Shown here piece by piece: positions 1 to 18,804 of a DNA stretch of 64,000 nucleotides. A program made the translations under genes and the position numbers. The DNA is from Patescibacteria group bacterium (GTDB lineage Bacteria; Patescibacteriota; Gracilibacteria; BD1-5; UBA6164), in assembly GCA_047637875.1 (NCBI GenBank), contig JBLJBH010000038.1:1969-65968 (forward strand). Direction: 5' to 3'. The notes beneath the pieces are model-generated. The model saw only the letters and a list, made by a program, of their open reading frames with translations, was not told the origin of the DNA and did no database searches. Within the stretch, counting starts at the first letter, position 1, and each line of letters begins with the position of its first letter.

Positions 1-64
1 TATTGAGTTCTACTCAAAATAATACTTTGATTTATATTTTTGTTATTTCATAATTTTACTAAAA

Positions 65-1045
65 ATGCATATTATACATAATATAATTTGAGTTCCAAAA
101 ATTTCTCAACAAGACTTAGAAGTAAATGTTTCTAAATTTACTTTAGGACCTTTACCAAAATGATATTGAGTAACTTTATGAAACTCTTTAAGAAGAGTAC
201 TTTTATCTTCTATACCTTGAACTAGAGTAACTTGAATAAAAGTAGCTTGAGTAAGTCATGAGTATTCAACTCTTCCATGAGTTAAAGATAGTGTGTTAGA
301 TATAATGTTAAACTTAAAAAGTTTAATTATTGATAAAAAAACTACAGATATTGAATGGATAAAGTTATCAAAAAATAAAGCTTGAAAAGTTTTAGCTTCT
401 GATATAAAAACTTCTGCTTGAATTGAAATTTTAAATAAAGACCTTTATATTACTGAAATTGATAAAGATGGTTTAGCTCTTGATATTGAAATCAGAGTAG
501 AAAAATCTGTTTGATATTTAAGTATTGAAGAACTTAAAAAAAGAGAAGATGATGTTAATGTTTTATTAGTTGATGCTAATTTTTCACCTGTAATAAGTGT
601 AAAATATGAAGTAAATGATACAAGATTTTGAGATATTACAAACTTAGATTCACTTGAAATGACTATTTCAACAAATTGAGTTATATCTCCTGTAGATTCT
701 TTAAAATTTTCTTCTAATATGTTATCATCATATTTTGGAATATTTAATGAAGAATCTCTACAAGTAGAATGACAATTTATTTCAAATGTAGCTGATTTAC
801 TTCAAAAAGAAAAAGAAGAAATTAAAGAAGAACTTGAAAAAGAAACATATACTCCAATCGAAATTATGTGACTTTCACCAAGAACTTTAAATGCTTTAAT
901 CAATTGAAATATACTTTCAATTGAACAACTTGTTAAATGTACAGAAACTAAACTTTCATCAATAAAATGATTCTGAAAGAAAGCTATGACAGAAATAAGA
1001 GAAGCACTTTGAGAAAGAGGTTTAAAACTTCTTTGAGACGATTAA
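65..1045 (+). CDS. rpoA: DNA-directed RNA polymerase subunit alpha
   Basis: 326 aa with TGA=Gly. N-terminal GYGVTLGNSLRRVLLSSIPG and C-terminal domain LSPRTLNALINGNI..IKGFGKKAMTEI. ATG 65, TAA 1043-1045, length divisible by 3. Confidence 0.93.
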
Positions 1046-1094
1046 AAAAATTGGTTTTTAACCAAAAAAATTATTAATTATTAATTTAATTACT

Positions 1095-1457
1095 ATGAGA
1101 CATAGAGTAAGGAAAAACTTAAAGTTTAACTGAAAAACATTCCAACATAGGAAAGCTATGGAAAGAAATCTTTTAACGAATTTATTTTTACATAAAGCTA
1201 TTAAAACTACTCCAAAAAAAGCTGCTTTAATTGCTCCAATGATAGATAAAATGATAAATGTTGTTAACTCAAAAGATGAAATGAATGCTATCAGATATGT
1301 TATGCAATATTTATTTACTAAAGAATCATCTTTAGAATTATTTAAAAATATAGCCCCAAAATTTAAATGAAATAAAACTTCTTGATTTACAAGAGTTACT
1401 CCTATAAAATATAGGGATTGAGATAATGCTAAATTAGTATTACTTGAATTACTTTAG
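1095..1457 (+). CDS. rplQ: 50S ribosomal protein L17
   Basis: [30 protein letters not shown] is a typical L17 N-terminus. In frame with track ORF 1158-1370. Confidence 0.9.
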
Positions 1458-1480
1458 TTATTATTTATAAAAAGCATATT

Positions 1481-1912
1481 ATGAAAACATTAATGCCAAA
1501 ACAATTATCAAATGATTCTAGAAAATGGTACGTAGTTGATGCAGAAGGTCAAACCCTTGGTAGACTTGCTACACAAATTGCTATAATCTTAAAATGAAAA
1601 AATAAAGTTTCATTTGCTCCACATTTAGATAATTGAGATTACGTTGTAGTAATCAATTCAGAAAAAATTTCTGTTACAGGAAATAAAATGGAGGGAAAAA
1701 TTTATTATAGACATACTGGATTTATGTGAGGGTTAAAACAAATTACTCTTGGTAAATTAATGGTTAAAAAACCAACTGAAGCTTTACATAAAGCAGTGTC
1801 TTGAATGTTACCAAAAAATAAATTAAGAGCTGATATGTTAGCAAGATTGAAACTAGTTGTTTGAAGTGAACACAGTTTTAAAGCTCAACAACCAGAAACA
1901 ATAACTTTATAA
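1481..1912 (+). CDS. rplM: 50S ribosomal protein L13
   Basis: [46 protein letters not shown]. 143 aa. Confidence 0.92.
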
Positions 1913-1930
1913 TAATTATACTTTAAAATT

Positions 1931-2323
1931 ATGGCTAATAAATATATTCATGCAATTTGAAGAAGAAAAACAGCTACTGCTCAAGTAAGATTATTTGAAT
2001 GAGCTGGTAATTCTACAATAAATTGAAAAGAAGTTTCAACTTATATAACAAGACAAGACTTATTTGAAACAGCTTTTGCTCCAGTAAAATTATGTTCTTT
2101 AAAAGATAAAGTTTTTTTTGAAGTTAAAGTAGAATGAAGCTGAATTTCAGCACAAGTTCAAGCTATTAGACATGGACTTTCTAGAGCTTTAGCTGAAAAA
2201 GAAGAAGGGTTTAAAAAAACTTTAAAAGCAGCTTGATTATTAACAAGAGATGCCAGAAAAGTTGAAAGAAAAAAACCAGGAAAGAAAAAAGCAAGAAAAT
2301 CTCCATCTTGGTCAAAAAGATAG
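1931..2323 (+). CDS. rpsI: 30S ribosomal protein S9
   Basis: GRRKTATAQVRL ... LLTRDARKVERKKPGKKKARKSPSWSKR C-terminus. 130 aa. Confidence 0.92.
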
Positions 2324-2358
2324 TTTATTCTTTTTTCTTAAACAATACTATTATATAT

Positions 2359-2386
2359 TTGACAAATGCTTATTTTTTAATAAAAT
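2359..2386 (+). promoter_or_regulatory. candidate sigma70-type promoter upstream of rpsL
   Basis: TTGACA (2359-2364), 16-nt spacer, TAAAAT (2381-2386), 31 nt before the rpsL ATG. -10-like hexamers are common in this AT-rich DNA, so this is weak. Confidence 0.35.
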
Positions 2387-2417
2387 TTTGTCGTTTTAAA
2401 TTAATAAATTACTAAAA

Positions 2418-2840
2418 ATGACTACTATAAATCAATTAGTAAAAAAGAGTAGAAAAGACAAAGTAAGAAAGAGTAAATCTCCAGCTTTACAAGTTATTAA
2501 AAACTCTATTAAAGGTAATAAACAAACTGAATTACCAAAAGGATGTCCACAAAAAAGATGAGTTTGTACAAAAGTTACAACAATGACTCCAAAAAAACCA
2601 AACTCAGCCCTTAGAAAAGTAGCTAAAGTTAGATTAACTAATGGTTATGAAGTAAATGCTTATATTGGATGAGAATGACACAATCTTCAAGAACACTCTG
2701 TAGTTGCTATTAGAGGTTGAAGAGTTAAAGATCTTCCATGAGTAAGATATCATATCGTTAGATGATTACTTGATACTGAAGGTGTAAAAAATAGAAAACA
2801 AGGTAGAAGTTTGTATTGAGCAAAAAGACCTAAAAAATAG
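2418..2840 (+). CDS. rpsL: 30S ribosomal protein S12
   Basis: [63 protein letters not shown]. 140 aa. Carries a ~16-aa insertion after PAL (2490-2543). Confidence 0.95.
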
Positions 2841-2846
2841 TAGCTT

Positions 2847-2901
2847 AAATCTGAAAGTTTAAAGCTAGAAGTTTTTCTTTAAGTTTTAAACTTTCAGATT
2901 T
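2847..2901 (+). promoter_or_regulatory. perfect 17-bp stem-loop in the rpsL-rpsG spacer
   Basis: AAATCTGAAAGTTTAAA (2847-2863) pairs with TTTAAACTTTCAGATTT (2885-2901), 21-nt loop, no T-tract after it. Confidence 0.5.
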
Positions 2902-2974
2902 CCTATCTATATTACATAAAGAGTAATCTAGCTTTTGTTAGGTGAAAATTTTACTTTATTATTTATAAAAAATT

Positions 2975-3412
<438 letters not shown>

Positions 3413-3440
3413 TTTAATTTTAATTCTTAAGTAAAAATAT

Positions 3441-3713
3441 ATGGCTCACAAGAAAGCTCAATGATCAACGAATAATGGTCGTGATTCCAATGCCAAAAGA
3501 CTCTGAGTGAAAATATTTGGAGGACTTGAAGCTAGAACTGGAAATATTATAATAAGACAAAAAGGAAATAAATTCTGGCCAGGTGAAGGTGTTTCACAAG
3601 GAAATGATTTTACTTTATATGCAAATAGAGACTGAATAGTTTCATTTCAAGAAAAAAGAAGAGTAAGATTTGATGGAAGAGTTTATAGAGATACTTATGT
3701 TTCAGTAAAATAA
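3441..3713 (+). CDS. rpmA: 50S ribosomal protein L27
   Basis: [28 protein letters not shown]...[16 protein letters not shown]. 90 aa. Confidence 0.92.
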
Positions 3714-3789: not shown

Positions 3790-3984
3790 ATGAATACTAC
3801 TAAATTTTCTCATTGGAGAGATGAATTAAAAAAGAAGCCACAGGCAGAACCAGTTATTCTTGATGGAAATACTGGAAAGATTTTATCTGAAAAACAAATT
3901 AATGATGAAAAAATTGCATCTCTTCGTGCAGCATGAGCATCTGATTTTGAAACTATATTTAGGGAAATATTTCGTCATAGATAG
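3790..3984 (+). CDS. hypothetical small protein (64 aa)
   Basis: Open frame ATG 3790 to TAG 3982-3984 with one in-frame TGA. No recognisable motif. The stop lies inside a hairpin (ATATTTCGTC..GACGAAATAT). Confidence 0.4.
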
Positions 3985-5814
3985 ACGAAATATTATGCCA
4001 TTATAGCTCAGTTGGTAGAGCGTTCCCATGGTAAGGGAGAGGTCACGGGTTCAATTCCCGTTAATGGCACCATTTATGTTAAAAAAAAAATCTAATCCCT
4101 CGTTAAGCTCTAATATAACAGACTTACGAGGGGTTATTTTTATGTTCAAAAACAGAATTTCATTAATTTTTCTCTTTTGAACATAAGAAGCCTTTTTATA
4201 GATAGCAGAGGCATTTCTTAGTAAATCAGTGATAACTTCATATTTAAATAAAATATCATTATTTTTTTGATTTACATTGTTTACTTCTGAATTTAAATCA
4301 TTTAAAACTTTTTCTATTTTCTTTTTTTCTTCTTGATAAATCGTTTCTTCATTTTCATCTCTCATTTTTCAAAGATTATTTTTAATAAAATCTTTTAATT
4401 TGTTTTCCATTTTTCAAATTTGTATATTTAACAACCTTTTTTGCTCTTTTATATCAAAATCCCCCCTATCAATTCTTTCTTTGATAAGGATTAACAAATT
4501 TCAATAATCTTCCTCTGTTATTTTTATTTTTTTCAGTAATTTTAAGATTTCTTTTTCTATTTCTTCGTATGTAATACTTAATTTTACTTGATTACAAGCA
4601 TATTTTATTTGATGTGGTTGAACTATATCTCAATAATCCAAATTATTATTTCCTGTTTGTTGTTTTAATTCTTTAAGTTTAGGAACAAATCTTTTTTCGA
4701 AATTAGGTAAAGTACAATTAAAATTATACTTTCCATCTTCTGTAATAAGCATTTCATTATGTATCGCCATTATATCATCAATATGTGGTTTTACTTTATT
4801 TTGTGTTCTTACCAATTTTCATTCTCAAACTCCTCATATTTGATATATAAGTTGAGTAAATTCATCTTCTGTAATAAGAGGTTCATAATAATCATTTTTT
4901 TCTCTTAAATCTACTTCCTGTTTTCAATAGACAAAAACTCAATAATAAAAAGAGTCTCTCCAAACTTGATAAAGTTTCGTATCCATAGCTTTTCACTCTC
5001 TTCATTTATCATTTTTAAATTCCCTTTTAAATCAATTATCATTTAAATATTCGGCAATTCTTTCATCACTTTCATTTTTTAATTTCATCATAAAAGCTTC
5101 TCTCATAAGAGGAAAATTAACAGGATGTGGCATATGATATCCTGTTTCCTCATCTATATAATACCCCATTTTATAAATTCAAACTGCTTTTCACTTTGCG
5201 TGAGCAGAATAACTTCATCTTGCACTATCTTCACTTAACTTATCTGAATATTGTTTTGAGAATACAAACCACATTCATAGCATCATTTTTCCACTTGCAT
5301 TATTTTCAAAATGGAAATTTGTATATTTTAAATCAACTTTTCATTCATCTACCAAATTGATAATCTCTCATCATTCAACCATATTTCTTGCTTGTCTATC
5401 TGGTGAATATGATAAAATTCATTTAATTTTTCAGGTTTTAATAAGTGAAATAAGTTTTAACCATTTTTTTCTTATTCCTGGTGTTTTTCAAGACTTTTGT
5501 TCTTCTATGATAAATAAATTTTGAGTTTTTTCTCTTAAAACTTCATCTTCGATAGTTTCAGTACTGGTTTTCTTTTTTAGTCAAAGAAATTCGTTTTCTT
5601 TAAAATCAAAATGAGAAAAAGTTGAGTTTTTTTCCATTAATTTGATATTATTAACCAAAGCAAAATTATAACAAACTCTAATTTGGTCTTCGATTGATTG
5701 CGTTTGTTTTCCTGATGCCTCATCTGTTGATTTTCTGACATAAATTACATATTCTATTTCTTCTATATTTTCTATTTTTTTGATTTTAGTTCTCGATGTT
5801 TTTGATATAACCAT
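3883..5814 (-). CDS. large serine recombinase (integrase of the element)
   Basis: N-terminus YVRKSTDEASGKQTQSIEDQ (catalytic Ser motif), SPDRQARN, then a recombinase and coiled-coil region. Recognisable body is 4054-5814 (587 aa), with many in-frame TGA. Under code 25 the frame reads through TGA at 4051-4053 and across the tRNA to TAA 3883-3885. This 56-codon tail is probably an integration artefact. Confidence 0.8.
3997..4072 (+). tRNA. tRNA-Thr (anticodon GGU), CCA encoded
   Basis: Hand-folded cloverleaf. Acceptor GCCATTA/TAATGGC, D stem GCTC/GAGC, anticodon stem TTCCC/GGGAG with loop ATGGTAA, T arm ACGGG-TTCAATT-CCCGT, discriminator A plus CCA. 76 nt. Confidence 0.9.
4051..4077. repeat. 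attL: left copy of the direct repeat (core 4053-4068 AATTCCCGTTAATGGC)
   Basis: 16/16 identical to 20566-20581. Identity is about 22/27 over 4051-4077 versus 20564-20590. Covers the T-arm and acceptor 3' strand of tRNA-Thr. Confidence 0.65.
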
Positions 5815-6510: not shown

Positions 6511-6522
6511 TATTTAAAACTG

Positions 6523-6550
6523 AAAAAGACCTAATTTCTAGGTCTTTTTT
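6523..6550. terminator. bidirectional hairpin terminator (end of the hsd operon and of 5941-6510)
   Basis: AGACCTA-ATTTC-TAGGTCT flanked by an A-run and a T-run. Confidence 0.75.
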
Positions 6551-6551
6551 G

Positions 6552-7976
6552 CTATTTTATAATCTTTCTCAATTCGCTAACCAAAACTTTTATCTCATCA
6601 TCATTTTTTTCTATATTTTCAATGATTTCGAGTGGACTTCTTAAATTTTCTTCTTTCGCTTTATTTGGATTTTTTGCTGATAAATCAAAGTCTTTTATAT
6701 CTTCAACTTTTACAATCCACGAATTTTCTCAAACAACTCTATTTTTTAGTAGATTTGGAATTTCTTTTATTTCATCGTAAGTGATAGGCTTGTTTTTTGT
6801 CAAAGTTCTTCCAAGATTTATTTCATAATACCAAATATCTTTTGTACTTCAATTTCTATCAAAAAATATTATGTTTGTTTTTACTCAGGCATAAGGTAAA
6901 AATACTCAGGCAGGAAGAGAAATAATACTATGTAAATTAAAATCTTCTAAAATCCATTTTTTAACATCTCAAAAAGCATTTCCTGTATTAAATAACACTC
7001 ATTCTGGAATTATAACTCAAACTTTTCATCAAAGTTTAACACTTTTAAGTATATGTTGTAAAAATAGTATTTCTGTTGCATTAGTTTTAATAGGAAAGTT
7101 TATTTGAACTTGTGATTTAATTATTCATCAAAATGGTGGATTTGCTAATACAACATCATATCTATCTTTTTCTTGAATATCTTTTATATTTTGTGCTAAT
7201 GTATCTGTTTTCTTTATATTTGGATTTGGAACTCAATGTAAAATCATATTCATCACTCACATAATGTATGCAAGTGGTGTTTTTTCATTTCAAAAAAAGC
7301 TATGTTTTTGTAAAAAATCTAGTTCTTTATCATTTTTTTCTTGTGCATTCATATGATTAAATGCTTCGATTAAAAATCAACAACTTCAAGTTGCAGGGTC
7401 ATAAACAGTTTGTCATATTTTAGGTTCTAAAACATCAACTACTATTTTAATAATACTTCTAGGAGTATAAAATTCTCAATTATTTCATCAAGCATTTCAC
7501 ATTTCTTTTAACAAATCTTCATATACTTGACTCAATTCAAATAAATCTTCTTGTTTTTGAAAACTTAAAGAATTAACTATATCAATAACTTCTCTTATAT
7601 TATTTCAATCTTCAATTCTATTATTAATAAAGAAAAATACTTCTCATATTTTATACTTTATTGAAGAAAAGTTTTCGGTTGAATTTCTAAAAGATTTTAA
7701 ATAAGGAAACAAAGAGTTATTAATAAAATCTTTTAAATCATCTCCATTAATATATCATTTTTGTAAATTAATCCAGTTAGCCCACCTATATTTTTCATCT
7801 AAAATATAAGTATAATTTTTTCAATCTAAAAATGCTTTATCATTTTCAGTAGTTTCAAAATCATCAAGGAATTTTAAAAATAATATCCAAGATATTTGTT
7901 CTGTATAGGACATTGCTCAAGATATTCCAGAGTCAGTACGAAGAACATCTTTAATTCTTGAAATTTGTTGTTTCAT
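6552..7976 (-). CDS. hsdM: type I restriction-modification system, DNA methyltransferase subunit M
   Basis: 474 aa. GEFYTPR, DPATGSCGFL and NPPFGG motifs. Confidence 0.93.
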
Positions 7977-7978
7977 AT

Positions 7979-8833
7979 TTATTTTTTAAAAGATAAAATA
8001 AAGTCATATATTTCTTCAAAATCAAACGAGAAATCATTATTCAAAACTGGTTTTAAGTCTGTCTCAACTTGTTTTTTTAGATTTTCAAAGTTTTCCTCTA
8101 GTGTATATTTATAATCAACTTCATTCAATTTTATTTCAAGTAATTTTTTAAACTCTTTATCTTCAAAATCAAAATTTCAAAATTGCTTTACATACCAAAT
8201 ATCGAAAAAATCTCTAATTGCTGGAACTCATCTTGTAAGACTTGCTCTTAATTTTTCAGCTATTGCTTCTTTTAAATCAATACAATTTATAAAATGAGCT
8301 CAAAAAATATTTTCTTCTAAAACAACATCTTTAAAAAATGATTTAATTTCTCCTGAAAAAGGTTCAATATATAATTTATTTTTAAGTGAAATATCTATTT
8401 TTATAGTTTGAGTTGAATTATCTATAATTGAGTTATATTCAAAAGTAAACATAGCAAGTTTATAACTATCATATTTTGTTCTTTCTTCTCTTAAATTTAT
8501 TCATAAGATTTTTAAATCTTCTATAAAATTATTTTCATATTCTTTAAGTAATGTTTTTCTAGCTCTTGCTCATAAATCAGTATTTAAAACAAAATCTAAA
8601 TCTTCTGAAAGTCTAAAATATGGAAAATATACTTTATTTAAGCAAGTTCATCATTTGAAAATTAAATCTGGATATTTTTCTCAAAATTTTACCAAAATAA
8701 TAGTCAGTAAAAAATCTTTTTCTACTTTATCTAAGGGAAAATCTTTATTTGATTTTTTTAAAATATTTAGATAATCTTCTTTTGATAAATTACTATATTC
8801 TTTTAAAAAATTATTAATTTTTTTAATATACAT
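7979..8833 (-). CDS. abiEii: nucleotidyltransferase AbiEii/AbiGii-family toxin
   Basis: 284 aa. FKGGTCLNKVYFPYFRLSEDLDF matches the hallmark of the DUF1814/AbiEii NTase family. Stop is 2 nt before the hsdM start. Verified codon by codon. Confidence 0.8.
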
Positions 8834-9413
8834 ACTTTTTTATTTTATTATTTACAGTAATTGAAGCATATTTTTTTGCTAATTTTTCTAATTTATTTTT
8901 ATCAACTCAATATGGAAGATTATTAAAATCTTTTCCTTCTTTTATCATCTGAATAAAAGCTCTTTCAATAGTCATAATTTTATATGGGTATCATTCAAAT
9001 TTTTCATTTTTTATACCATAAAAAAAACTTTCTCTTTGTTTTACGAATATAAATTTAGAATTTCAAATAATTTTTTTTCAAGATTTTTTAGTATTATAAA
9101 TAGTTTGCCATTCTGCTATTTGTTCAGTTAAACTATATCTATTATAAATTCATAATCATCCAAATACATATACATCATCTCACATATACAAATCTCAAAC
9201 TACAAAAGAATTTATAATTGCTTTTGTTTTATTGTTTATGTATATTTTTCACTTTTTTATAGGAGTTAAGAGTTCTAATTTGCATAAATCTTTAATAGAA
9301 TAGTTTGGAGCAAACTTATCTAATATTTTTTGTAAGTATCCACTTGTAATATATGGTTTTGAATATAATTCAAGTTTTTCTCTTATTATTGCTATTTTAT
9401 TTACTTGTTTCAT
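8823..9413 (-). CDS. abiEi: putative AbiEi-like antitoxin / wHTH protein
   Basis: 196 aa. Overlaps the abiEii start by 11 nt, as cognate pairs often do. The N-terminal region looks like a wHTH. The call rests mainly on position. Confidence 0.55.
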
Positions 9414-9477
9414 AAATATTTTGTGTGTAGTAAAGTGGTAATATTATATCTTTTCATACCACAAATGCAAATATTTT

Positions 9478-10674
9478 TTACTCTTTCACCAATCTTCATT
9501 CAAAAGCATCTTTTAATAAACTTTGTTTTAGTTCTTCTAATTCTTTTAATTGTAATTCATATTTTGTTTTTAATTCTTTGTTTTTTGCAAATACTTCATC
9601 TAAATATGAAACAATTTCTTTTTGTTTTTCTAGTGGTGGAAGTGGGATTTGAAAACTTCTTAAATATCATAATCAAACAAATTTTTGAGTTGCTCAATTT
9701 GCTTCATTTAACATCTTTTTGATAACTAAATCTGATAATAAATAATACTTTAAAAACTCCATTATAATAATTTCATTTTTTTTCTTGAATAATGCCACAT
9801 TTTTAATTGCAAAATTTGGTTCAAAATTTACAATTGTAGGATTTCATATTGTTCAAATCATAGCAAACAACAAATCTCATTTATCAACTTTACTTCTTTT
9901 ATTTATATTTATATAATCATTTTCACTTATTAGTTTTACATTTGTTAAATCTATTGAATTATCTATCAAATTTTTTGAGGTCACAAGAGGAAATCATTCT
10001 TTAAAAAACTTTGGAGAGTCGTGAGTTCAATCTCTAACATCAAATATTTCTCATAATTTCTTCATTTCATACTCTCACTCACTAAAAACTTTTTCTAAAA
10101 CACTTTTGTTTAATTCTTCAAGATTTTTGAGATTTTCTTTTGTGAGATTTATGTTTTTATCTATGTTTTCAAAAGCTGAGTCTAGTTTTTGAACTATGAG
10201 TTTTTGGGTTGAAAGTGGTGGAAGTGGGATTGGAATTTGTTCAACTTCTTTGATTTGCAAATTTGCTATTCAAGTTGTTTTCTTGGAAAATATTCTTACT
10301 GTTTTTTGGGTTTTATCTGAATTATAAAAATAATAAAAATAATTATAATCTATAAAATCTTTTAATGGTCTAAAACAAGATATAAATCATCATAATGTTG
10401 CTTTATATCATAGATTTTCTATTAAACAGCATTTTCATAATAATTCTAAACTATTTGCACTAGAAATAAGTAAATCTCAATCTTGTAAAAACTTTTCTTC
10501 ATTTTTTACTATTGATTTATCAATATAAATTATATCACTCTCATCTAATTTTGTTTGGATATTTTTAGTTCTAAAACAAGCTAATCAAGTTTTTACATCC
10601 AAAATATCAGATGGTTTATAAGTTACTCATCTTATAGTTTTTACTATTTCTCAAAGTTTTTTTGTTGGGTACAT
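9478..10674 (-). CDS. hsdS: type I restriction-modification system, specificity subunit S
   Basis: 398 aa. Two target-recognition halves, each followed by the conserved IPLPPL..Q..I...LD helix region. In frame with track ORF 10075-10260. Confidence 0.9.
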
Positions 10675-10681
10675 AATTATT

Positions 10682-11653
10682 TTATTTCATTGTAATTAAA
10701 AATTCATATAATTTAATTCAAGAGTCTATTCATTTTGCTCATAAATTTTTATCTATCTTATTTAAATTTTTATGAACTATATTATTTCTTATTCATCTTA
10801 AAATGTTTATATTGATTAAATCTTCTTTATATTTTAAATAATTATTTTTTTCTAAAATCAATGGTAAATATGTATTTAATAAAAGATTAAAGGTTAATTC
10901 TAGCTCTAAATCTTTTATTTTTTTATTACTTAATCATATTTCATTAAATTTATTTTTAATAAACTCTCAAAATAATATTTCCAAAATAATACTTGCTTCT
11001 AATAATGAAAATCTATCTCAGAATAGAACTCTTGACTTTAATTTAATTAATTTCAAAATATTTTCCTCTTCTAAAATATTCATATTAGTTACTTTTCGCA
11101 TCTTTTCCCACTTTTCTTTTGTTAACAATACATCATCAGAATAAATAGAATTTATAGTTTTTTTATCTTTTGATATTTTTTTTATCTCTTCAAATTTTAT
11201 TTTTCTAAAATCAATTCAATCATTTGAAATTTCTAATTTATATCAATCAATTAAAGAAAAACTATTATTATTTAAAAAACTTCAAATATATCAGGTTCTA
11301 AAATTTAAATATTCAAAGTTTCATATTCTATAAAATAATAATGAAATTTTTTTTATAACTTTTTCATAGATTAAATATATTTTTTTTCAAGTTTCAATAG
11401 TGATATTTTCACCTAATAGTTCATTATATAAATTATCATCTCAATTTATAGTTATAATCATAAATTGAGATGGTGATAAATCAATATAACCATTTACAGG
11501 TTTTTCTTCTTTTTTTATAAAATAATTGACTTCATAATTATCTAAATTTATTTTCAAAGGATTTTTTTCTAATTCATCCGACCAATATGAAGTTCAAAAA
11601 TCGCACAATCATTCAAGAGATGGAATATTTATTCTTAAATATATTTTTTTCAT
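10682..11653 (-). CDS. hypothetical protein with a C-terminal HEPN-like R-x4-H motif
   Basis: 323 aa, verified codon by codon. C-terminal helical region ends with LRGIRNNIVHKN (RNNIVH = Rx4H). Lies 7 nt upstream of hsdS. Confidence 0.55.
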
Positions 11654-11670: not shown

Positions 11671-13608
11671 TTAATCTGTAATAAAGTAGTGTTTATCTTT
11701 TTTAAATAAGTATAAAAATATAATATCATTAATTTTTTTTCTAAAAATAAAATTTTTTAGATGAACTCATAAAATAATATATAAGATAAGAAAGAAAAAA
11801 GATATAAAATATAAAATTCATTCCCATAAATCCCAATTTTTTAATATAGGTGGTATAATGAAAATAACAAATAAACTACACAAAATAATAAAAATAATAA
11901 ATGAAATAACCCACGATAATATTCAAGCAATTTTTATATTTTTATTTTTTAACTTTTCCAATATATCTTTATTTTTTCTTTGTTTTTCTTCTTCTAATTT
12001 TTTTTCAATTTCAGATTTATGTCATTTTTTTACTTCCTCTAAAATCTCATTATGAATTGTAATTTCTAAATTCTTTTTAGATTTATCAATATTTGTAAAA
12101 ATAATATTTTTATCTATTTTTTCTCAAACTGAAATTGTTAAAAGTTCATTTTTTATTTCATTAGAAGAAATCAAGAGTGCAAAATCTTCATCTGTAATTT
12201 CTTTTTTTTCAACCATTTCATAACACAAAGCATAAAAGTTATTCCAAACATCTTTATTTATTAATCAATATGAAGTTAGTCATACAAAAACTGTTTCTAA
12301 TGGAATATCACTAGACCAATCAGGTTTTTTTAACCATAGGTAATTACTAAGATAATCTGGCAATATTATATTTGGTATTTTTTTGAAAAAACTTTTTTCA
12401 TTTATTTTACAATCAGCATTAAATAATCTTTTATCAGAGGTTAAAAAAATATATTTTGATTTTTCTAATAATCTTGGTGAAGAACTTCACCTTAAAAATT
12501 TAATAGACTCAATTGCATAAATATCGTGTTTTTTTGAATGGCGGGGTTTATGATTTATTTCTTCCTCATAATCATCTTCATTATAATCTAATTTACTAGT
12601 TTTTTGTTCATAAATCTCTACTCAAAATTTTTGAATAAGTATATTTTCAATTTTATATGTTAATTGTAATATATCTGATGTACCATATCATAAATTTTTG
12701 AAATTTTGGTAAATAGAGGCAACATTATATCATTTAAAATATTTATCTTTTTCAGTTTGGAAATTCTCTAAAACATTTATTGTCTCATCAATAGTAAATG
12801 TAAAAACTTTTACAGATATTCCTCTTTTTTGCATTAATTCTAATAATTCAAACGATGATTTTTCAAGTTCTTTTCAATGTCATCAAATTAATGAGAAAAT
12901 AATATTAGTATCTAAAAAAACTGTTAATGAATTTAAATTATACTCATTATTCACATCTTTAATTAAATTTTCTTTTGTAATTAAAGAACAAAGTAAGGCT
13001 CAATATACAATATTTTTAATTAGATTTTTAAATTCTAAATTATTATTAAGTTGATTTACAACAAATCTTGAAATTCAAACCTTTAAAACATTATCAACTC
13101 AATCAAGTTTTCAATTGATATAACTTTTACTAAAAGGAGAAAAAAATTCAAAAAAATTATAAAAATTATTATTTATAATATCTTGTAATGTTTTATATAT
13201 TATATCATCTTCATATCTAATATTATTATCTTTATATATATATAATCTAATAGACTCAAAAAGTCTTTCTAACTCAAAATATATATCCTTATTTAAATCA
13301 ATTGAGTCAATTTTCTCTTTTTTTCATTTCTCTGTTAATTGAATTATATCAGATTTTTCGTCATAAATAATTTTATTTTGTTTATCAAGTTTTTTTAATA
13401 TGTCTTTAATTGTGAAATTTGGTATATTTAAATAATACCTATTCTTTATATCATTTTGAATTTTTTTTAATTTAGTTCAATTAATTATATCAATAGAATT
13501 CATAATAAAAGGAAAAAAAGTTTCAAGATAACTTTTCTTTCATTCATACAGTGTTTGCATCATTGAATAAGTATAAAAATCTCTATATCAAATCTTACTA
13601 TTAGACAT
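11671..13608 (-). CDS. PIN-like domain protein with two C-terminal transmembrane helices
   Basis: 645 aa, verified codon by codon. TVFLDTNIIFSLIG (PIN strand 1 Asp) and YIFLTSDKRLF (PIN T-x-D). C-terminal hydrophobic segments ILSWVISFIIFIILCSLFVIFII and ILYFISFFFLILYIIL. Confidence 0.55.
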
Positions 13609-13637: not shown

Positions 13638-15962
13638 CTATTTAACATATAAACTCTTTTGTAACTCATAATAAGCATTTTTTAACTCCTGCATTCACCC
13701 GAAAGTTTCTGCAATTTCCCTTGGTTGACCTTGGTTAAAGAGAGCAATTTTACTTGCTAGTCCATCTTTTCTAAATTCTAAAATTCCATTTTTTACATAA
13801 AGTCCCAACAAAAACTCTAAAAATTCTTTCGCTTTTAGACTTTGGTATTTTTCCACTGTTTCCTCTCAATACTGAGACCTTTCAGCCCTAAATTTAATAT
13901 CACTGTTAAAAGATATATGAGCCAAAATATCAAAAATATCAGACTTTTCAGCTTCAAACATCTTTTTTAAATCTTCCAGTTGCTCACTATCAAGTCAAAT
14001 ATTTGCTAAATTTTGAAGTAATTCTTCTCTGGTTTCAGGATTAGACCATAACATCCTGAGTTGATGTTCATCCTGGTAAATACTTGGTAAATCTCCAATA
14101 ATTCTTTTTAAAAAATCATTTGAATTTAAATGTTTCCCAGTCGTTGGGTCAAGATATCTCGTCTCAATATCAATAACTTTTACTTCTCTATTTGGTGCGA
14201 GTTTTACCACTAATCTTTCTTTTTTTTCAAAATCATTTTCTTTCGTATCTGTTGGGAAATCTTTTTTGGTATTTGGTCTGTATTCTTCTTTTTTTACTTC
14301 TACTTCATTAGATAAATCCTCTTCTGGTCATCCATCCCAAAGTTCATCACTAAAATCATTAGTAGCTCCAACAAAATCATAAATAGTGAAATAATCTTTT
14401 CCATCAAAAAGTCTTGTTCCTCTTCAAACAATTTGTTTGTACTCTACAATACTTCCAATATTTCTAACGAGTATAATATTTCTTACATTGAGTGCATCCA
14501 CTCAGGTAGTCAGCATTTGAGAGCTTGTTAAAATCACTGGAATATCTTTATCGTTGTCCTGAAATCTTTCGAGATATTTTCTTCATATTTCTCCTTCGTT
14601 ACTCGTCACACGAACACAATAATCTGGGTCTTTTACTTCTTTATACTTATTTATACTGTCTCTAATTCTCAGTGCGTGACCTTGGTCTACACAGAAAATA
14701 ATAGTTTTATCCATTTTGTTTATTTGTTGTAATATCGTTTGAGCAATTAAATCTGACCTTTCATCGATTATAATCTCTCTTTCCATATCTTTTGTGTAAT
14801 ACACTTCTTTTTTTATTTCTCACGAAACGACTTTATCTCAACTATTTAAAACTAATTCATCAATATTAAGTTTAATTCTTTTGATTTTAAACGGAGTCAG
14901 AAATCAGTCATCTATTCAAGTTTTTAGTGAATATTCATAAATTGGATTTCAAAAATACTTGTAAGTATCAACATTATCATTTCTTTTTGGTGTTGCCGTA
15001 AGTCCGATATGAACAGCAGAGTCAAAATATTTCAAAATCTCAGCCCAATTTCCGTCTTCTCTAGCTCATCATCTATGACATTCATCAATTATGATAGCAT
15101 CAAAAAAATCCCTATCATATCTATTGTAATAGGCTTCTAGTGTTTCACTAGGGTCATCTTCTGATACTCATCCTGCCAAAGCTTGATAAATAGCAAAGAA
15201 AATATTTGCGTTCGTTGGAACTTTTCATCATCTTTTTTTGATTTCAGTTCCGTTGATTTTGATGATATCTTTTTCCAAAGGATTAAAAGTATTCATTGCT
15301 TGGTCTACAAGGATATTTCTATCAGCCAAAAATAAAATTCTTGGTCTTCTCACTCATATACCATCTTTCGACCATCTTGCATTGAATAGTTTATAAACCG
15401 TTTGAAATGCAATAACGGTTTTACCAGTTCCAGTTGCAAGAGTGAGTAAAATCCTATTTTTTCAGTCTCAAATAGACTCCATTATCTTATTTATAGCAAT
15501 CTCTTGATAATATCTTGGTTTTCTTTCTGATAAATAAAATGGTTCTTGGAGTAAAGTTTCTTTTGTTTGATTGATTTCAGAAAATACTTTATTATAGAGT
15601 TCTTCTGGTGTTGGATAATTATCGATGTAATCACCTTTTCCAGTTTTTAGGTCAAATTCATAGGTTCTTTTTCAGTTTGATGAATATACAAATCTTAGAT
15701 TTAAAATACTCCCATATTCTTTTACTTGCTCTAAACCTTCTGTTGGTTCTAAACCTACCTTTTTAGCTTCAATAATCGCTAATTTTACTCATTTATAAGT
15801 CAAAACATAGTCAGCAAATTTTTGCTTTCCTCTTTTTCCTCAAAGCCCAATCCTTCCATCAGTAAAAGAATGTTCTCTGATGATATTGATATCATTCCAA
15901 CCATTATTTTTTAGTTGTGGGTCTATATAATTTGCTCTTGTATCGCTTTCTGAATATGACAT
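13638..15962 (-). CDS. hsdR: type I restriction-modification system, endonuclease subunit R
   Basis: 774 aa. LATGTGKT, IIIDECHRG, GLTATPKR and QIVGRGTR helicase motifs, plus an N-terminal nuclease region. In frame with track ORFs 13995-14210 and 14583-14804. Confidence 0.93.
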
Positions 15963-17046: not shown

Positions 17047-18804
17047 ATGAAAAACTGCAAGAAAGGTGATGCTACTTTAAGTATCGAAAATAATGCTAAC
17101 TACATTACTGAAAGAAGAATAAATCCTGAAGATTGTATATTATTTGTCAAAGATATGCAAACTGATGAATTTAGTTATATCGAGGAAAAATATATTACCT
17201 CTCAGATTGAGAATAATAATTTATATTTTCTTGTTAATTGATATTTGTTATGAAAAAGAAATGAGTCAAAATTGAGAAAAATATATGCTCTATGATTTGA
17301 TGTTGATACTTTAAAAGAATGAATAAGTGATAACGAATTATTCACTAGATTAGAAGAAATCGAAGAAGAATATTGATTAAGAGCTCATATAATCAATAAG
17401 ACTGGATGATGATATCATATTTATTATTTAATGGAAAAAACACCATATTTACCATTTAAAAAAGAATTTGATAAAATTTACGAAAGATTAATGAAGGATT
17501 TATCTGCTGATGAGGATTTTAGCTGGAAGGTAGGAATATTAAAAGTAGTTTGATGATATGATTTTAGAAGAAAAACTTGGATTATAAATATAAGAAATGA
17601 GTTTCATAATAATTATAAAATTACTGATTTTAATAAAATTACTGGAGATGAAGTATTTAAAAAATATGAAAAGATGAATTTTTCAGATGAATTTAGAAAA
17701 ATAGATGAGGAAGAGTTGAATTTGAAAAAAAGAATTAACAGTTATGTTTATAAAATAAATGATATTCCTTTTCCTATTATTTTAGAAAAATTAAATCAAA
17801 TATGATTTAAAATTACTATAATAAATAATAGAGTTCATATTGAAGGGAATGAATGACACGCAAAAGCATTATATTATCACGATAATACTGAAAGAGTTGT
17901 TGATTATGCGAGAAAAAATAGAATAAAAATATGAGAAACATCAAGAGGCTGAAATTATGGATTTTTATATTATATTTTTTCTATAGCAGACTCATTGAAA
18001 AACAAGGATTTGGAAGTTATTAAAGATAAAAAACTTATAAAAGATGAAATCAGGAAATTTGTTTGAAAATATTTTAATATCTACTATAGAAATCCAGATA
18101 ACTATATCAATACAAACAAGTTGATTTACAATGAATTTTTAAATGGAAAAGTAAGTTTTGATGAAATGGATAAAAGTTTTTTACTTGAAAATAATATCAT
18201 CAATAGTAATTATAAACTTTCTAGTATTTCAAAATTTGTATTATTAAATATTTTGAAGTGAAGCGAAATAGATATGAGCTGATATTTTAAGAATAAAACT
18301 ATTTATGAATTATTATCTTCCTCATCATTAAAGGAAAGTAATATAAAAAAACAAAATAAAAAATATAAATTAGTATTATTATGTTTATCAAAAATATATA
18401 AGGATATTTGCACTATCTCAAAAGATACTGAGAAAATAAGAGTTTTTTTGATTTCTGATTTAATTGAAGAAAATTATAGATTTTCATTCACTTTACTTAA
18501 AAATTACTTTAAACTTCAAAAATTTGAAAAATATATTTATAGAGGTATTTATATCTGATTTATTAATAACAAAAAACTAAATATTGAGAAACTAGATTTA
18601 TATTTTTACTTATTAAATCGTATTATTAATAAAACTGAAAAAATTAGCCTTGAGAGAGTATTAAAAGAGTTTTGATGACAAACATATCTAACAAATAAAA
18701 GTCTTTCTAAAAGTAATATTATTCGTGATATAAAGATATTTAAAAGCTTTCTAACGACTACTAATAGAAAGATAGATATTTGAAAAGATATGATTGTTTT
18801 TTAA
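17047..18804 (+). CDS. putative replication protein with an N-terminal AEP primase-polymerase-like domain
   Basis: 585 aa, verified codon by codon. ALGFDVD (D-x-D motif I) and KTGGGYHIYYL (G-x-G-x-H motif II). Confidence 0.6.

Follow-up and report, generated by a model that had tools for sequence, protein, structure and literature searches.

The gene at positions 10682–11653 (minus strand) of the 64,000-nucleotide stretch of Patescibacteria group DNA analysed here (hereafter the window) is located within a type I restriction-modification (R-M) operon, directly upstream of hsdS, which raises the question of what an additional 323-aa protein does at this place. A sequence-only reading had proposed that it is a HEPN protein, on the basis of an R-x4-H motif close to the C-terminus, and had linked it to an upstream gene described as PIN/TM. 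The analysis presented below indicates that the protein (hereafter the target) is probably a latent, metal-independent HEPN endoribonuclease serving as an anti-phage (abortive-infection type) effector in a type I R-M operon, and that its conserved neighbour is hsdS/R-M, not the PIN/TM gene.

Genetic code and organization of the operon

The DNA of the window is very AT-rich. Translated with the standard bacterial code it contains almost no long ORFs; with TGA as a sense codon a dense gene map is obtained. Within positions 10682–11653, translation table 11 yields no ORF of at least 60 aa. Under table 25 (TGA = Gly), the minus strand of this region constitutes a 323-aa ORF with 16 in-frame TGA codons. 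The readings according to tables 11 and 4 were dropped in favour of table 25; table 4 turns conserved glycines into tryptophans, as observed in RpoA (65–1045) and in ribosomal proteins.

Inspection of the target ORF revealed that its TGA codons 20, 111, 146, 240 and 308 correspond to glycine in homologues from unrecoded genomes (39 of 41 sequences at position 240 and 34 of 41 at position 308). TGA accounts for 16 of the 18 glycine codons, and both near-invariant tryptophans (positions 24 and 182) are encoded by TGG. Since TGA coincides with the glycines of the homologues and TGG with Trp 24 and Trp 182, code 25, not code 4, operates within this gene, which, judged by its codon usage, demonstrates the distinction cleanly on its own.

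The target is the third gene of a same-strand array, whose components are as follows (all on the minus strand, in the order of transcription):

13638..15962, minus strand: hsdR, first gene of the operon (Pfam ResIII, EcoEI_R_C, HSDR_N)
11671..13608, minus strand: second gene of the operon, encoding a 645-aa membrane-anchored protein (the PIN/TM gene of the sequence-only reading)
10682..11653, minus strand: target, encoding a 323-aa two-domain protein, third gene of the array, code 25
9478..10674, minus strand: hsdS (Pfam Methylase_S, 2.4e-31), 7 nt downstream of the target
7979..9413, minus strand: AbiEi and AbiEii genes, located between hsdS and hsdM and forming a module of their own within the operon
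6552..7976, minus strand: hsdM, last gene of the operon (Pfam N6_Mtase, 2.7e-60; HsdM_N)

Within the AbiE module, AbiEi occupies positions 9413–8823 (PADLOC AbiEi, 1.2e-10) and AbiEii positions 8833–7979 (Pfam AbiEii, 8e-28; PADLOC AbiEii, 1.2e-37). The intergenic gaps, in order from hsdR to hsdM, are 29, 17, 7, 64, −11 and 2 nt. The two distances given earlier for the target, 17 nt from the stop (11671) of the 645-aa gene and 7 nt from the start of hsdS at 10674, proved to be exact. Terminator-like sites were not detected between the genes of the operon, and the sole clean one is located 3′ of hsdM (6521–6551). A promoter scan of the AT-rich DNA of the window returned 91 sites, compared to 86.8 expected. 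In this bacterium, whose 1.26-Mb genome is read in code 25 (TGA = Gly), four modules of defence or toxin type are stacked in a single 9.4-kb operon.

A terminator-like element, consisting of a 14-bp inverted repeat with a T-rich stretch behind it, was identified inside the target ORF (11437–11472, minus strand; codons about 61–73). The predicted RNA fold has a free energy of −15.9 kcal/mol (z = −5.0 compared to shuffled sequences). This repeat has no counterpart in the 72%-identical orthologue of locus L001 and, since it is not kept there, it is probably incidental; it could conceivably act as an attenuator of the downstream hsdS.

A gene encoding a large serine recombinase (Resolvase and Recombinase domains) is located a few genes past the hsdM end of the operon, with a 204-aa gene in between (coordinates recorded with the recombinase: 3883–5814, minus strand, and 17047–18804, plus strand, of the window). 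Its presence is consistent with an R-M/HEPN/AbiE block riding on an integrative element. Locus L001 contains the same operon without an adjoining recombinase.

Conserved residues and the C-terminal domain

A word-index homology search identified only two close relatives of the target, and it was an exhaustive search of representative sequences that opened up the family. Of the 79 clusters that this HMMER search of 1.84 billion representatives revealed, 60 had E≤1e-10; most are about 320 aa in length and were matched over their full length. With clustering at 50% identity, the family is thus taken to comprise about 80 clusters. Wherever a member has a source name, that name is “hypothetical protein”. 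Conservation was analyzed in an alignment of 47 full-length homologues, which are about 21–72% identical to the target, with a mean column identity of 35%. The domains and sites distinguished within the target gene are listed below.

11144..11653, minus strand: N-terminal domain (residues 1 to about 170), predicted small α/β unit
10685..11131, minus strand: C-terminal all-helical HEPN-like domain (residues 175–323), from the domain model, PF18735 matches of the family and hhalign
10979..10999, minus strand: acidic residues E219 and E225 in predicted HEPN helix 2, invariant in 47/47
10772..10789, minus strand: predicted catalytic motif R289-N-N-I-V-H294 (R-x4-H), with R289, N290 and H294 invariant in 47/47

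The segment LRGIRNNIVHKN corresponds to residues 285–296 of the target protein, and the RNNIVH motif it contains, correctly placed near the C-terminus by the sequence-only reading, is encoded by positions 10772–10789. An Rx4-6H pattern was found in 8.3% of shuffled versions of the target protein and R[NDH]x3H in 0.5%. Judged by these shuffles, the motif alone is not rare and its weight comes from conservation: it is meaningful because none of the 47 full-length homologues in the alignment deviates at R289, N290 or H294. Just seven columns of the alignment are invariant (E219, E225, N260, R286, R289, N290 and H294), and H294 is the sole histidine of the target protein. Variability of the R and H residues, which had been named beforehand as an argument against a HEPN protein, was therefore not observed.

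As defined by Anantharaman et al. 2013 (PMC3710099), HEPN domains are four-helix up-down bundles with (i) an Rx4-6H motif at the end of helix 3 or the start of the H3–H4 loop, (ii) a polar residue (N, D or H) directly after the R, and (iii) a conserved acidic residue upstream, in helix 2, typically within Ex3[KR]; inserts between helices 2 and 3 are frequent. The corresponding sequence features are present in the family, i.e. Rx4-6H, N290 following the R, and E225 with R or K at +4 in 37 of the 47 homologues. AlphaFold2, supplied with the 47-sequence alignment, produced a full-length model with a mean pLDDT of 86.6 and a pTM of 0.78, and a model of residues 172–323 with a pLDDT of 90.6. The predicted helices comprise residues 193–210, 214–238 (containing E219 and E225), 276–295 and, after a loop, 302–322. 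Short helices at 243–274, which hold N260, form a predicted insert between helices 2 and 3, and the R-x4-H motif is placed at the C-terminal end of the penultimate helix (276–295) in the AlphaFold models. This helix order fits the published definition; the three-dimensional comparison with Foldseek was non-significant (best E 0.8).

Glycine, encoded by TGA, is found in the window protein at position 229 (E225+4), the [KR] site of the family motif E225-x3-[KR]. Codon 287 is likewise TGA (Gly) where R or K is present in 42 of the 47 family members, and the L001 orthologue (72% identity) also has TGA at codons 229 and 287. TGA is one substitution away from the arginine codons AGA and CGA. These glycines may represent a simple loss of basic residues or odd decoding at the two codons. 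Despite Gly at 229 and 287, the invariant residues are all intact in the window protein.

Comparison with curated models gave a graded picture. The window protein produced no Pfam match at E≤1, HEPN models included, and was not picked up when its genome was searched with the PF18735 model; scans of the whole protein in PADLOC, NCBIfam and PHROGs were equally empty. Among the 47 homologues, 32 weakly match the Pfam family HEPN_RiboL-PSP (PF18735), with the matches mapping to the C-terminal domain; fewer match HEPN_Cthe2314, Swt1, MAE_28990, pEK499_p136 and Apea, and the non-HEPN Pfam matches are singletons or doubletons only. The cut-off of PF18735 is 28.4 bits, a level that is approximately reached by only two of the 47 homologues and not by the window protein, so that, on these scores, the C-terminal domain is outside PF18735 by that model's own criteria. 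Bona fide PF18735/PF18737 proteins were gathered and 38 of them aligned as a profile. In hhalign, the C-terminal domain matched this profile with a probability of 55% (P 1.2e-4), centred on the catalytic helix; matches to single bona fide PF18735 sequences were too weak (16% and 1%).

A Foldseek comparison, as suggested in the sequence-only reading, returned nothing significant from the PDB for either the full-length or the C-terminal model, but the highest TM-scores of the C-terminal domain, themselves non-significant in Foldseek, were obtained with HEPN structures: Csm6 (6tug, 0.51), AF_0298 (2hsb, 0.40/0.45), 4nqf (0.38/0.40) and HepT (6m6w, 0.34/0.37). Sequence searches of the PDB with the single protein and with two family profiles were empty. 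Four-helix bundles are easily mis-assigned. Since no curated model is passed and Foldseek is non-significant, the HEPN call is made at the superfamily level, from convergent weak evidence: the C-terminal domain very probably belongs to the HEPN superfamily, with the RiboL-PSP/MAE_28990 clade as the nearest. The invariant R and H, the position of the motif where the penultimate helix ends, and the matches of homologues to Pfam HEPN families all support the original HEPN reading.

The N-terminal domain and comparison with known systems

The model of the N-terminal domain consists of strands at residues 3–10, 33–37, 40–47 and 62–70 and a long helix at 86–109, followed by a poorly ordered linker at 160–169. 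It contains the near-invariant W24, but its conservation is otherwise lower, with a mean top-residue frequency of 0.35 compared to 0.50 in the C-terminal domain. No recognizable motif had been seen in the N-terminal part from the sequence, and the approximately 170 residues indeed match no family or fold among those searched: no match was found in Pfam, NCBIfam, PADLOC or PHROGs, there was no PDB sequence match, and Foldseek searches of the PDB and BFVD gave nothing at E<0.5. ABC ATPase and other NTPase families were matched neither by the window protein nor by its relatives. Ferredoxin-like folds (CutA, PII), which were weak top Foldseek matches of the full model, were not accepted for this domain. 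An L-PSP identity was also rejected, with Ribonuc_L-PSP matched by 0 of the 47 members. By comparison with HEPN effectors from other systems, the domain would constitute the regulatory or sensing part of the protein. Because the family falls below the Pfam, NCBIfam and PADLOC thresholds and its N-terminal domain has no recognizable relatives, it would escape the defence-system finders now in use.

Among Pfam families, PF18735 is matched best and most often by the target family, whose catalytic helix is nearly the same as that of PF18735/PF18737 proteins (LRKiRNDIVHgN in the target family, LL..RN.IAHG in the latter). However, bona fide PF18735/PF18737 proteins are single-domain proteins of ~215 aa with invariant WRKKEL and AHWEGFIK, which are absent from the target family. 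Some PF18735 members are fused to an endoRNase L-PSP domain, whereas the target family has an extra N-terminal domain of ~170 aa and no L-PSP fusion. For RiboL-PSP HEPN proteins, the 2013 table gives ParB operons, not R-M (Anantharaman et al. 2013, PMC3710099).

PrrC, of the EcoprrI type Ic R-M system, resembles the target in having a C-terminal HEPN RNase domain and a gene in the hsd operon beside hsdS. In PrrC and RloC, an N-terminal ABC/Rad50-like NTPase regulates the nuclease, whereas the target has an unrelated α/β domain and no recognized NTPase; there is no detectable sequence similarity, and the target family also occurs away from R-M genes.

ApeA and HepS are single-protein HEPN anticodon nucleases in which a non-catalytic domain performs autonomous sensing, the triggers being deoxydinucleotide ligands (ApeA) and a phage tail-tip protein (HepS). 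The target shares with them the combination of a sensing or regulatory part and a HEPN nuclease in one polypeptide, encoded in defence islands or prophages. However, only one of the 47 relatives matches Apea, marginally (E 0.055), and no ApeA or HepS structure was among the best 50 Foldseek matches listed for the C-terminal domain. HepT of the HepT/MntA system has a HEPN fold with Rx4-6H and is among the weak structural matches (6m6w), but the target is more than twice as long, belongs to a different clade and has no MNT partner: it is flanked by the 645-aa membrane protein and hsdS, and the only nucleotidyltransferase of the operon is AbiEii, paired with AbiEi.

HEPN RNases in R-M operons are already established, and the target is a new, unnamed member of a well-known class of second-line anti-phage effectors, not a new system. 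Since at least 16 HEPN clades linked to R-M operons were already listed in 2013, with PrrC/EcoprrI as the paradigm (PMC3710099), the finding leaves this picture unchanged. What is new is an unnamed family of about 80 clusters with an N-terminal domain without recognizable relatives.

Genomic neighbourhoods and possible function

A search with a tighter sub-alignment for related loci gave three genome loci and seven metagenome loci. In total, 24 homologue loci were recovered, representing about 15 distinct neighbourhoods; the counts that follow are a small tally and not a random sample. Five of these neighbourhoods (the window, L001, L003, L015 and L033/L034) are in or beside type I R-M genes and two (L013 and L030–L032) are beside type III mod/res. 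The homologue of L001 (72% identity) is located in the same operon, AbiE included, and that of L003 (43%) within the array hsdM-PemK-homologue-hsdS-179 aa-hsdR. In L015 (32%), hsdS begins at the stop codon of the homologue, and in L033/L034 (27%) the homologue is placed just upstream of hsdM-...-hsdS-...-Fic-hsdR.

The window, L001, L003 and L015, all four of them code-25 loci, have the homologue directly upstream of hsdS, separated by at most 7 nt or overlapping it, and around this pair both gene order and cargo differ. The pair has thus survived in a TGA-recoded clade despite rearranged operons, which suggests that the homologue is functionally tied to HsdS or to the core of the R-M system. 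Such conserved pairing offers a simple test case for a possible ATPase-free coupling of an RNase effector to a restriction enzyme.

The upstream PIN/TM gene behaves differently. Homologues of the 645-aa protein, which has no match in curated families, were found near members of the target family in 0 of the 24 loci. The proposed link between the two genes, for which a co-occurrence check had been suggested, was not borne out even in the 72%-identical locus L001, where the PIN/TM gene is replaced; it is therefore ruled out as a partner conserved with the target. In L001, the space from hsdR to the homologue (8156–9995, plus strand) contains genes for two unrelated proteins: one of 275 aa, with a weak HEPN (PF05168) match, and a membrane protein of 343 aa, with a weak 8xMP match. 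Because unrelated genes stand in place of the PIN/TM gene, the position behind hsdR behaves as an exchangeable cargo slot, which in both cases holds a membrane-associated candidate effector.

The remaining homologues occur without nearby R-M genes (L004, L005, L007, L016–L019 and L035). Their neighbours include a convergent gene for an OLD-family ATPase-nuclease beside the homologue (L016), Band_7 (L017), Fic, in an island rich in TA genes that adjoins smpB (L018/L019), an AbiU2-type HEPN gene and a transposase-like gene (L007), DUF2321 (L004) and SEC-C (L035); no obvious defence neighbour was found in L005. The family is scattered over Nitrospirota and Zixibacteria MAGs and recoded genomes, and a single full-length copy was identified in 401 genomes of the phylum of the window. 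Such a scattered and rare distribution is characteristic of mobile accessory defence cargo.

In the mechanism proposed for a latent RNase, the target would be co-transcribed with hsdS and possibly translationally coupled to it. The predicted RNase site, formed by R289, N290 and H294 with E219/E225 in residues 175–323, would probably be assembled across a dimer interface, by analogy with other HEPN enzymes. The N-terminal domain (about residues 1–170) would keep the nuclease off until infection, whereupon the activated RNase would arrest translation. The usual target of such HEPN enzymes is the tRNA anticodon loop. Metal-independent endoRNase activity leaving 2′,3′-cyclic phosphate is a trait of the HEPN superfamily (PMC3710099). 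For the target, RNase activity and its RNA substrate, as well as dimerisation, toxicity and trigger, are inferred.

As regards the trigger, our tentative choice is a self-contained sensor-effector, frequently accompanying R-M genes. It is favoured over direct guarding of the R-M complex because many relatives occur without R-M genes and the PrrC-type ATPase is missing. The adjacency to hsdS in the recoded clade keeps guarding as an option, although a rather unlikely one. This specific version of the latent-RNase explanation holds that the N-terminal domain binds HsdS/HsdM (and possibly HsdR) and that the complex keeps the protein inactive until a phage anti-restriction factor disables the R-M system, whereupon the freed HEPN RNase cuts host tRNA and aborts infection. 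The position directly upstream of hsdS in four differing operons agrees with it; PrrC holds the equivalent place in EcoprrI, where it is expected to provide a second-line defence once restriction has failed (PMC3710099). On the other hand, there are more distant members that have no R-M genes nearby or are located beside type III genes, and the target lacks the ABC-ATPase domain that regulates PrrC/RloC.

A still more speculative, less probable extension is that the N-terminal ~170 aa represent a new sensor fold docking on HsdS/HsdM, with the homologue-hsdS cassette as an ATPase-free analogue of PrrC-EcoprrI. If such docking occurs, the restriction enzyme would be directly guarded by its own RNase, and this would be the first guard of this kind described in bacteria of the candidate-phyla-radiation type, with genomes of ~1.3 Mb.

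Two explanations that dispense with a latent effector appear improbable. According to the first, the target would be a constitutively active HEPN toxin, neutralised by the product of an adjacent gene and mainly stabilising the island or the R-M operon. TA systems frequently include HEPN toxins (PMC3710099), and other TA modules are present in the related operons (AbiEi/AbiEii in the window, PemK in L003). However, no conserved small partner gene and no MNT-type antitoxin was found, the upstream neighbour is a different gene in each locus (PIN/TM, the 343-aa membrane protein, PemK, Fic, S24 peptidase or SEC-C), and a protein of 323 aa with an extra domain of its own is unlike the ~130-aa HepT toxins.

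According to the second, equally improbable explanation, the target would be an inert or non-HEPN helical factor (an R-M accessory, regulatory or RNA- or DNA-binding protein) whose R-x4-H is merely HEPN-like, as might be expected from the lack of a significant structural or curated-model match and of the basic residue of Ex3[KR] in the window protein; but the weak profile matches are specifically to HEPN families, R, N, H and two Glu residues are invariant across about 21–72% identity, in the manner of a catalytic site, and HEPN domains that are inactive have typically lost it (PMC3710099).

Several of the islands are located close to ribosomal-protein genes. In L030–L032 (homologue P0014, from another small-genome lineage), an island containing DUF3800, MazE, type III mod/res, an S24 peptidase gene and the homologue directly follows rpsI, between ribosomal-protein genes. 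The island of the window is placed a few genes after rplM-rpsI (window 1–3500) and that of L001 just upstream of infA-rpoA-rplQ-rplM. Ribosomal-protein clusters may be recurrent insertion neighbourhoods in these genomes.

A further arrangement was observed in L018 (6022–13167), downstream of smpB, where three CRS1_YhbY genes of near-identical length (90 aa) are interspersed with modules comprising Fic and the homologue, PIN/DUF3368, an HTH-M78 peptidase and HipA. This region resembles a tandem array in which each integrated element has duplicated the gene that it targets.
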